Source: a virus
Lineage: Duplodnaviria > Heunggongvirae > Uroviricota > Caudoviricetes
DNA length: 19,860 nucleotides
IMG/VR virus record: IMGVR_UViG_2778261687_000001
Location: 1-19,860 of that record
Direction: 5' to 3' (one strand)
In this document: positions 7,565-7,911 of the stretch, in pieces
Position numbering within the stretch: position 1 is the first letter of the stretch
Layout: each line of letters starts with the position of its first letter
Translations under genes and position numbers: made by a program
The notes under the pieces: model-generated
The model's database searches: none
The model's input: the letters and a program-made list of their open reading frames with translations, nothing else
Told to the model about the DNA's origin: nothing

Positions 7565-7692
7565 AGGCGATAAACCACCTGACAACAAAACACTGAAAAA
7601 TTTAAATCAGAAGTGAATTTTATTAAATCCTTAACCGGAGGGATTTCTGCACCCTAAAAACATCAGGAGGCCGCCCGAAAGGGCGGTAATAA

Positions 7693-7911
7693 ATGACTAC
7701 ATTATTCAGAAAAGAATATCCGCGAAAGAGCAGAGCAACGGAATTCCTGTTTCTCATTCTGTTTATCGTGTTGATGATACCGATATCCCCGCTATTACTG
7801 GTCTGGTTTATCGGGAAAATAATTGAGCCAGTTATTGAATTGTATAACGACGTGGTATGGGCGTCGTTCAACACACTGCACAACAAAATCAACCCATATA
7901 AGGAAAGCTGA
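7693..7911 (+). CDS. Small membrane protein, 72 aa
   Basis: Track ORF with one clear TM helix; AGGAGG lies 24 nt upstream, separated from the ATG by a GC hairpin (CCGCCC-GAAA-GGGCGG). Confidence 0.45.
   Translation: MTTLFRKEYPRKSRATEFLFLILFIVLMIPISPLLLVWFIGKIIEPVIELYNDVVWASFNTLHNKINPYKES

Follow-up and report, generated by a model that had tools for sequence, protein, structure and literature searches.

How is a gene translated when its only Shine-Dalgarno (SD) sequence lies 22 nt upstream of its start codon and a stable GC-rich hairpin fills the space between the two? This question is raised by an intercistronic region near 7.6 kb of a DNA stretch of 19,860 nt from a virus of the Caudoviricetes (IMG/VR record IMGVR_UViG_2778261687_000001), which was analyzed over its full length and is referred to below as the window.

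Genomic setting and start codon of the DUF4014 gene

The window is a Rac/Qin-like lambdoid prophage of Escherichia coli. In the annotation of a near-identical prophage of E. coli N51, the genes are ordered as dicB, Rha, RelBE, repressor, cro-like gene and YdaT, followed by O-like and P/DnaC-like replication genes, DUF977, DUF4406 and a hypothetical gene, and then by DUF4014, DUF551, Hok, DUF968, RusA and Q. Based on this gene order, the + strand near 7.6 kb is a rightward early (pR-type) operon, in its accessory 'nin-like' stretch that runs from the replication genes to Q. Genes in this stretch are tightly packed, except that 128 nt separate the stop codon of the hypothetical gene (ending at 7564) from the ATG of the DUF4014 gene (7693). 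The following features were recognized in and around this gap.

7253-7564, + strand: upstream CDS for a hypothetical protein of 103 aa, stop codon TAA at 7562-7564 (N51 annotation and ORF list)
7565-7625, + strand: left, A/U-rich portion of the 128 intergenic nucleotides, a 'type B' left arm ending in ...ACTGAAAAATTTAAATCAGAAGTGAATTTTATTA
7626-7688, + strand: conserved cassette core of 63 nt, AATCCTTAACCGGAGGGATTTCTGCACCCT(A)AAAACATCAGGAGGCCGCCCGAAAGGGCGGTA (covariance model R1, 91.3 bits)
7638-7656, + strand: stem-loop 1, GAGGG with CCCUC and a 9-nt loop (consensus fold)
7665-7670, + strand: SD sequence AGGAGG, the sole SD-like motif upstream of the DUF4014 start (sequence)
7670-7687, + strand: GNRA-capped hairpin, 7670-7676 pairing with 7681-7687, loop GAAA at 7677-7680
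7688-7692, + strand: single-stranded A/U spacer AAUAA from hairpin to start codon (predicted unpaired probability at least 0.7)
7693-7911, + strand: DUF4014 family gene, 72 aa with a predicted membrane segment (Pfam PF13198)

The upstream 103-aa protein had no match in a Pfam search. The 72-aa DUF4014 protein matches PF13198 with an E-value of 8e-26 over positions 1-71 of 72, and a TAA at 7690-7692 closes the frame directly upstream of the ATG at 7693-7695; because the family is covered from position 1 and the frame is closed, this start codon is secure. The same TAA excludes a hidden small ORF or an N-terminal extension through the hairpin, as do a 1-nt indel polymorphism in loop 1 and the type A copies of the region, which have no start codon in the open frame. 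A longer CDS is annotated in 'phage Rac' (L004), where an ATG was created by mutation after the normal ATG had been lost.

Anatomy of the hairpin and the Shine-Dalgarno sequence

The sequence read at the site is cAGGAGGCCGCCCGAAAGGGCGGTAATAAATG. The first-pass annotation had recognized the AGGAGG motif and placed it at 7664-7669, one nucleotide off its true position at 7665-7670. It had also described a GC hairpin with a GAAA loop between this motif and the ATG, which is present, and had given its size as 17 nt. The stem is formed by CCGCCC (7671-7676) and GGGCGG (7681-7686), which make six G-C pairs, and is closed by G7670.U7687, so that the hairpin measures 16 nt for the G-C core and 18 nt including the G.U pair. 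From the end of the SD sequence at 7670 to the ATG at 7693 the linear distance is 22 nt; across the folded hairpin it would be 5 nt (AAUAA), or 6 nt if the G.U pair does not form, a shortening that agrees in kind with the earlier proposal, in which the folded spacing had been put at about 7 nt. The AAUAA spacer itself (7688-7692) holds no SD motif. Among the 26 CDS of the homologous N51 prophage, 16 have an SD core at 4-10 nt from the start, and DUF4014 is the only one with an SD core at 22 nt.

RNA structure prediction, which had been suggested as a check in the first-pass annotation, supports the hairpin with a folding energy of -15.5 kcal/mol and 92% of the ensemble. None of 200 shuffled sequences folded as well, and among all 22-nt hairpins on the + strand of the window this one ranks second in stability; its 16-mer is expected 0.12 times per window with 3 mismatches allowed. 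Within 230 nt of context the stem pairs with a probability of about 1.0, as it does in 18 of 21 natural flanking contexts, which fits a ribosome-binding site (RBS) that is independent of the attached gene. By thermodynamic folding of 21 contexts, the GGAG of the SD sequence is predicted to be only partly accessible (median unpaired probability about 0.37), and in the window UCAGG at 7663-7667 is predicted to pair over a long range with 7578-7582 in a 5-bp helix (probability about 0.8).

A conserved intergenic cassette in Escherichia and Shigella

The SD sequence and the hairpin lie within a conserved core (7626-7688, AATCCTTAACCGGAGGGATTTCTGCACCCTCAGAACATCAGGAGGCCGCCCGAAAGGGCGGTA), whose 45 distinct variants have a mean column identity of 96%, an apparent conservation that is inflated by the choice of loci through an exact 19-nt anchor. 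This anchor, located in the 5' part of the cassette and outside the hairpin, retrieved more than 119 IMG/VR contigs. The 43 cassette nucleotides outside the anchor are 94-96% pairwise identical, while in the first 171 nt of the adjacent gene the third codon positions are 76-81% and the first and second positions 87-92% identical, so that the gap in conservation between cassette and gene is large, though the selection by anchor biases the comparison. The GGAG core of the SD sequence is invariant in all 45 cassette variants, and the SD sequence always abuts the 5' side of the stem. In stem-loop 1, which precedes it, 98% of the cells are paired and no pair has changed on both sides; in the window this stem is reduced to a weaker one of four pairs, as position 7656 is A where the consensus has C.

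The left arm (7565-7625) is conserved less than the core. The upstream flanks, in 56 distinct contexts, fall into two related A/T-rich arm types, one of which starts at the upstream gene's stop codon, with CTGAATAATTAAAT. Such an arm may act as an unstructured standby or S1-binding leader. On the + strand, no promoter was called in either type A or type B cassettes, and inspection of the left arm by eye found a lone TAAAAT without a usable -35 element. In Rfam 15 no family was matched by sequence overlapping 7540-7740, where only chance-level hits with E-values above 2 occurred.

A query of 86 nt (7615-7700) matched the cassette at 4829 places, which are distributed over 2663 of the 5426 complete E. 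coli genomes, with up to 7 copies in a genome. The cassette recurs before differing genes, in both pL-side and pR-side accessory regions, and in other phages. A protein-guided scan with DUF7167, one of the families encoded downstream of the cassette, across 185,579 species genomes detected the DUF7167 gene only in Shigella and in two MAG contigs labeled Collinsella and Chloroflexota, which we suspect to be contamination; the cassette is therefore essentially confined to Escherichia and Shigella. That the hairpin belongs to a widespread portable cassette had been missed in the first-pass annotation.

The cassette also marks a boundary between differently inherited segments. Similarity searches showed that homology to 933W-type phages starts at 7697, and the right edge of the cassette is therefore a mosaic junction, at which the match to phage mEp460 stops (7693); the left side of the intergenic region is shared with one set of phages, and a different set shares the DUF4014 gene. 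In phage P27, the DUF4014 gene has an ordinary AAGGAG-N6-GTG start without the hairpin, and thus the hairpin belongs to the cassette and not to the gene.

The cassette is absent from phages lambda and HK022; an exact 15-nt match, ATCCTTAACCGGAGG, lies antisense within xis of both. A kinship with iterons 3-4 of the lambda ori (39078-39133), the best lambda hit of the covariance model, was considered and treated as non-significant, given 14 bits and an E-value of about 0.04 with the covariance model and an E-value of 0.3 in the sequence-only nhmmer search. The iterons of the window itself (4986-5101) are different ones.

Downstream gene families and spacing

For 117 copies with enough flanking sequence from IMG/VR, phage and genome records, we took the first start codon after the stem with an ORF of 30 codons or more. 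At least six unrelated families of small genes are found downstream of the cassette in lambdoid prophages, with the following distances from the last G of the stem to the ATG.

DUF4014: 6 nt, spacers TAATAA, TAAGAA and TAATGA
DUF7167: 7 nt, spacers TAGTGAA, TAGTTAA and TAAGACA
MLTLKH: 8 nt, spacer AACAGATA
MxELTK: 8-9 nt, spacers TAATGAAAA, TAGTGAAAA and TAATAAAA
MQDIKE: 9 nt, spacer TAATAAATA
MGITKE: 11 nt, spacer TGGAGATAATA, with its own GGAG 7 nt from the ATG

The 6-9 nt spacers of the first five families contain no SD core (GGAG, GAGG or AGGA). The hairpin takes its position relative to the downstream start and not to the upstream end. In the MGITKE family the hairpin is kept despite an SD sequence of the gene's own, which points to another or an additional role that the hairpin may have.

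The cassette occurs as two separate halves at one locus (L100) and at three sister loci. GGAGG-TATATCT-ATG forms the end of the left half, which appears to act for a further small ORF, and the right half precedes DUF4014 in a compact arrangement of upstream stop codon, 4 nt, GGGAGG, hairpin, TAAGAA and ATG; the unit of SD sequence, hairpin and start codon is therefore kept as a module of its own even where two genes adjoin closely. Copies from which the hairpin was deleted were sought among cassettes in which an ATG follows the SD sequence within 14 nt, and none was found, the 21 hits being either variants with a G-to-T change in the 3' arm that creates an ATG or, in one case, an IS1 insertion in the loop.

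Natural variation in the stem

Across the variants, 96.7% of the stem cells are paired, a value equaled by shuffled controls, so that covariation is non-significant in this set, where copies are 96% identical and columns hardly vary. A pair that changed on both sides was found only once among the 45 variants (A1), and isolated A-U replacements occur in two further loci (L132 and L136). The commonest variants are C-to-U changes in the 5' arm, which yield G.U pairs in + strand RNA and A.C mismatches on the - strand. In other variants the closing G.U pair is replaced with A-U; CCACCC/GGGTGG contains an A-U pair, for which A.C intermediates are also found; and in CTGCCA/TGGTGG and CCACCA/TGGCGG the loop-closing C-G pair is replaced with A-U. 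A loop variant, GAAA to GGCA, preserves the GNRA pattern. Every variant folds into the same hairpin, with energies from -6.4 to -15.5 kcal/mol, and the weakest stem, CCGTTC/TGGCGG (-6.4 kcal/mol), is kept before intact genes. The natural changes are thus mostly compatible with a stem in + strand RNA, while a few variants with A.C mismatches would pair better on the - strand.

A putative split ribosome-binding site

The arrangement resembles the split RBSs of phage T4. For T4 gene 38 it has been established experimentally that a hairpin cuts the spacing between SD sequence and start codon from 22 to 5 nt, and in T4 gene 25 a hairpin cuts it from 27 to 11 nt; mutations that destabilize these stems lower initiation (Nivinskas et al. 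1999; Malys and Nivinskas 2009; reviewed in PMC3014915). The cassette shares with genes 38 and 25 an over-long distance (22 nt here and in gene 38), a hairpin in between, a folded spacing of about 5 nt, the lack of an alternative SD sequence and a conservation of the arrangement in related phages. Taking as hallmarks of a split RBS a distance above about 13 nt, a hairpin wholly between SD sequence and AUG that leaves 5-11 nt when folded, and a proximal spacer free of other SD sequences, we found 22 nt, a hairpin so placed that leaves 5-6 nt, and no alternative SD sequence with the only exception of the 11-nt spacer, which has its own GGAG. The anatomy is nearly number for number that of the T4 split RBSs, and therefore a role as structural spacer is judged the most likely one. 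Unlike the T4 cases, each of which is tied to one gene and documented by mutational and DMS evidence, the cassette is portable: it stands before six or more unrelated genes, and about half of the complete E. coli genomes carry it, in temperate lambdoid prophages.

We consider it reasonably probable that the hairpin forms part of a split RBS of the T4 gene 38/25 type, embedded in a portable cassette between cistrons that is similar to a PeSL (promoter-early stem-loop) without its promoter. The GC-rich stem-loop with its GNRA cap would fold autonomously on the polycistronic early (pR-type) mRNA. AGGAGG, at 22 nt too distant to function, would thereby come to lie about 5-6 single-stranded nt before the AUG at 7693, where a 30S subunit could engage SD sequence and AUG together with the hairpin bulged out. 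Ribosomes would in this way use AGGAGG across the folded hairpin. Because SD sequence, hairpin and short A/U spacer travel as a unit, they would provide a strong, context-independent RBS for any gene joined at the start codon, and the conserved cassette is at the same time the joint across which upstream and downstream genes reassort. Since the stem abuts the SD sequence, a coaxial stacking of the SD/anti-SD duplex on the hairpin is also conceivable. The earlier suggestion that the hairpin shortens an over-long spacing between SD sequence and AUG is favored by comparison, through the at least six unrelated genes and the match to T4 gene 38, while the covariation signal is non-significant.

No description of the hairpin sequence or of DUF4014 was found in open-access papers and bioRxiv, and an earlier description elsewhere is possible. 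In the literature searched, the mechanism has precedents, and its scale and portability appear undescribed.

Alternative explanations

An intercistronic element for mRNA stability or processing would give the hairpin a different task: it could guard the upstream cistron as a 3' stem-loop, similar to REP elements, or a processed downstream fragment as a 5' stem-loop, its place between SD sequence and AUG being incidental. A very stable GNRA hairpin with A/U-rich single-stranded flanks that RNase E could cut suits such a role, as do the retention of the hairpin in the MGITKE family with its own SD sequence and the half cassette, in which the hairpin lies only 14 nt past the upstream stop codon. 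REP and other intercistronic stem-loops are likewise stable intergenic hairpins of polycistronic mRNA present in many copies per genome; they are, however, imperfect palindromes of about 35 nt with a consensus of their own, placed relative to the upstream 3' end, whereas the hairpin described here is placed relative to the downstream start and fused to the SD sequence. Its constant position with the SD sequence against the 5' side of the stem speaks against a stability element, and cleavage in the spacer would part the gene from its sole SD sequence; we regard this explanation as unlikely.

The cassette might also be only a recombination linker at the DNA level, the hairpin being without function in RNA and downstream translation being weak or independent of an SD sequence. 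Its copies join six upstream contexts to six or more downstream families in at least 20 combinations, the window has mosaic breakpoints at both cassette edges (mEp460 up to 7693, 933W-type from 7697), and T4-type PeSL cassettes act as recombination linkers (PMC2839356). The higher conservation of the cassette than of flanking coding sequence also agrees with a linker, in that gene conversion or spread could yield the same pattern. A pure linker leaves unexplained the invariant GGAG, the start distance of 6-9 nt and the absence of an alternative SD sequence, as well as the + strand bias toward G.U pairs and the loop change that preserves the GNRA pattern. We therefore hold a linker without RNA function to be improbable, and a linker role as such is compatible with a split RBS rather than exclusive of it.

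A third explanation, to which we give little credence, sees the hairpin as an operator, comparable to boxB or a coat-protein site, to which an RNA-binding protein or a small RNA would bind in trans and so switch the cassette-preceded genes jointly. A GNRA-capped G-C stem exactly between SD sequence and AUG would be an ideal site for a translational operator, the stem and loop sequences are almost invariant beyond the pairing itself, and several copies occur per genome; no candidate binding protein was found to co-occur with the cassette, however, and the host phages differ in their immunity, replication and antitermination modules. With lambda boxB/nut the hairpin shares a short G-C stem, a GNRA-type loop and a location on the early lambdoid transcript. 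But in boxB a pentaloop caps a stem of 5 bp; it follows boxA at a few nt, close behind pL or pR, and each phage's N protein has its own specific version, whereas the hairpin has seven pairs and a tetraloop without a convincing boxA nearby, and stands immediately ahead of a start codon in the middle of the operon, about 3.8 kb past the cro-like gene and not beside an early promoter. A boxB/nut antitermination site was rejected on these grounds and because the cassette is common to phages with differing early regions, and a relation to put/nut sites because lambda and HK022 lack the cassette, an absence that also counts against an operator.

Finally, the first-pass annotation had envisaged a terminator-like insulator together with poor translation of the gene. 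That the hairpin terminates transcription intrinsically (Rho-independently) or insulates it, on the + or the - strand, is scarcely credible even though the G-C stem is terminator-like and a loose terminator-like call overlaps it on the - strand (7678-7663), for that call rests on a different and weaker 5-pair stem, the proper hairpin is followed on the - strand by CCUCCUGAUG and on the + strand by UAAUAAAUG or by UAGUGAA-like sequence in other copies, no stem variant is followed by a U-tract, neither the window nor a second locus (L007) gave a + strand terminator call, and the C-to-U variants would give A.C mismatches on the - strand.

Reassortment of flanking genes and comparison with mobile cassettes

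The gene upstream of the cassette in the window (7253-7564) is one of at least six differing upstream contexts, and genes of this type alone are joined across the cassette to six downstream gene families. Such reassortment would result from recombination inside the cassette; the mosaic junctions at its edges and the split cassette of L100 are indirect evidence that recombination between copies may excise or insert genes, as mini-circles. The closest described parallel to the cassette is found in the PeSL of the T4-type phages RB49 and phi1. These elements consist of an upstream stop codon in an A/T-rich stretch, a promoter, a G/C stem-loop and then SD sequence and ATG; they are repeated between small ORFans and were shown to mediate modular shuffling (PMC2839356). 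In PeSL and cassette alike, a repeated, conserved intergenic layout sets out at the stop codon of the upstream gene within A/T-rich sequence and continues over a G/C stem-loop to SD sequence and start codon. Both accompany small genes without known function where the genome is plastic, and in both the flanking genes are reassorted. The repeated motif ending in SD sequence and start codon, the small accessory genes and the reassorted neighbors that characterize PeSL were accordingly all found for the cassette, whereas a sigma-70 early promoter was not found on the + strand of either cassette type. PeSL carry a strong sigma-70 promoter and a terminator stem-loop upstream of the SD sequence, in contrast to the cassette, which has no detectable promoter or terminator and has its main stem-loop between SD sequence and AUG. 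The lack of promoter and terminator makes sense inside the antiterminated lambdoid operons.

A second parallel comes from the modular theory of lambdoid phage evolution, in which linker sequences were reportedly proposed by Susskind and Botstein in 1978. Linkers have been postulated and rarely defined, and morons carry a promoter and a terminator of their own. With both the cassette shares the character of a short conserved sequence at gene boundaries, the exchange of modules and the flanking of small accessory genes. It differs from linkers in being one concrete 63-nt sequence, and from morons in lacking promoter and terminator.

A broader interpretation, which we offer tentatively, is that the cassette of about 63-100 nt, made up of an A/U-rich leader, a first stem-loop, the SD sequence and the GNRA hairpin, is a promoter-less lambdoid counterpart of PeSL. 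It would then combine a context-free, self-folding split RBS with a linker that shuffles accessory genes between pL and pR operons and between prophages, and its near-invariant hairpin might perhaps be a common operator that co-regulates the cassette-preceded genes.

Implications for lambdoid phages

If the hairpin is part of a split RBS, the 'linker' idea of modular phage evolution would gain a concrete and testable sequence, and split RBSs would be no mere curiosity of two T4 genes and would represent a widely spread device, present in about half of the complete E. coli genomes and in Shiga-toxin phages among others. For genome annotation, this would mean that start codons 22-25 nt from an SD sequence can be genuine, and for synthetic biology the cassette would offer a compact natural RBS insulator. 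For the phages themselves, it would explain how tiny accessory genes continue to be expressed when they are moved between operons.

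Candidate regulatory RNAs and other elements of the prophage

Elements located in the window outside the cassette, by window position:

793-1014, minus strand: STnc100-like small RNA, sub-threshold Rfam match (37 bits, gathering score 47)
1012-1060, minus strand: DicF-like small RNA, sub-threshold Rfam match (38.7 bits, gathering score 48)
4986-5140, plus strand: iteron-like repeats inside the O-like gene
9778-9799, both strands: very stable hairpin GCCCUUGCCUGCUGGCAGGGGC (-18.0 kcal/mol on the minus strand)
14856-14927, plus strand: tRNA gene (51.6 bits) downstream of the Q antiterminator gene
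18427-18562, plus strand: GcvB-like small RNA, weak match (25 bits)

The STnc100-like and DicF-like matches (793-1060), which adjoin the prophage's dicB-like region, possibly represent divergent prophage small-RNA genes. The GcvB-like match ends at its 3' side in the hairpin UAGCCCCGCAAAUGCGGGGCUU (18535-18556, -17.1 kcal/mol), the strongest plus-strand hairpin in the window; this region is a candidate for an AgvB-type anti-sRNA, or for some other small RNA of the prophage, together with its terminator. The hairpin GCCCUUGCCUGCUGGCAGGGGC is located near a Hok/Gef-type toxin gene, and may be part of a hok/sok regulatory RNA structure. Within the O-like gene, CATCGGGTCAAAATGNCCCGATG occurs four or five times at a spacing of 23-24 bp, and three tandem copies of CTACAGAGATTA follow at 5105-5140; the CATCGGGTCAAAATGNCCCGATG repeats appear to be the ori iterons of the prophage. 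At the place of the tRNA gene, the near-identical annotated prophage of E. coli strain N51 carries tRNA-Ile and tRNA-Arg genes, likewise downstream of Q.

Cassette-like sequences in lambda and HK022

An exact 15-nt match to ATCCTTAACCGGAGG, from the 5' part of the cassette, was found on the plus strand of lambda (28968-28997) and HK022 (21883-21912), in both cases antisense inside the xis coding sequence, over the PPVKD codons. The stem-loop 1 region of the cassette, GGAGGGATTTCTGCACCCTCAGAAC, is similar to the junction of iterons 3 and 4 of the lambda ori, GGGGGATTGCTATCCCTCAAAAC (39078-39133); a covariance model scored the latter comparison at 14 bits (E ~0.04), but nhmmer gave an E-value of 0.3, and the similarity is not significant.

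Boundaries, insertions and variants of the cassette

The type A left arm, one of the two related types of A/T-rich arm 5' of the cassette core, starts with CTGAATAATTAA (e.g., at ~1470-1484 of locus L007), which contains stop codons in all three frames and whose GAA-TAA is the shared end point of two unrelated upstream gene families. Split cassettes, and IS1 insertions in or near the cassette hairpin, were found at the following loci:

L142, ~5271-5306: IS1 insertion in the loop of the cassette hairpin
Rac-SA53 (L005), 1650-2415: IS1 insertion ~27 nt 3' of the cassette hairpin
L100, 8000-8310 (also L023, L056 and L092): split cassette

The left half of the split cassette ends at its 3' side in AATCCTTAACTGGAGG-TATATCT-ATG, and the inserted small ORF seems to use the first GGAGG of the cassette as its Shine-Dalgarno motif; the right half, made up of GGGAGG, the hairpin, TAAGAA and the ATG, provides the start of DUF4014 ~210 nt downstream. 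In a common variant, GGCCGTTCGAAATGGCGG (L150, L149, L042 and other loci), a new ATG arises 9 nt past AGGAGG, within a weakened hairpin, and opens a 10-codon mini-ORF overlapping the DUF7167 start. This variant may be a coupled-translation version of the cassette.
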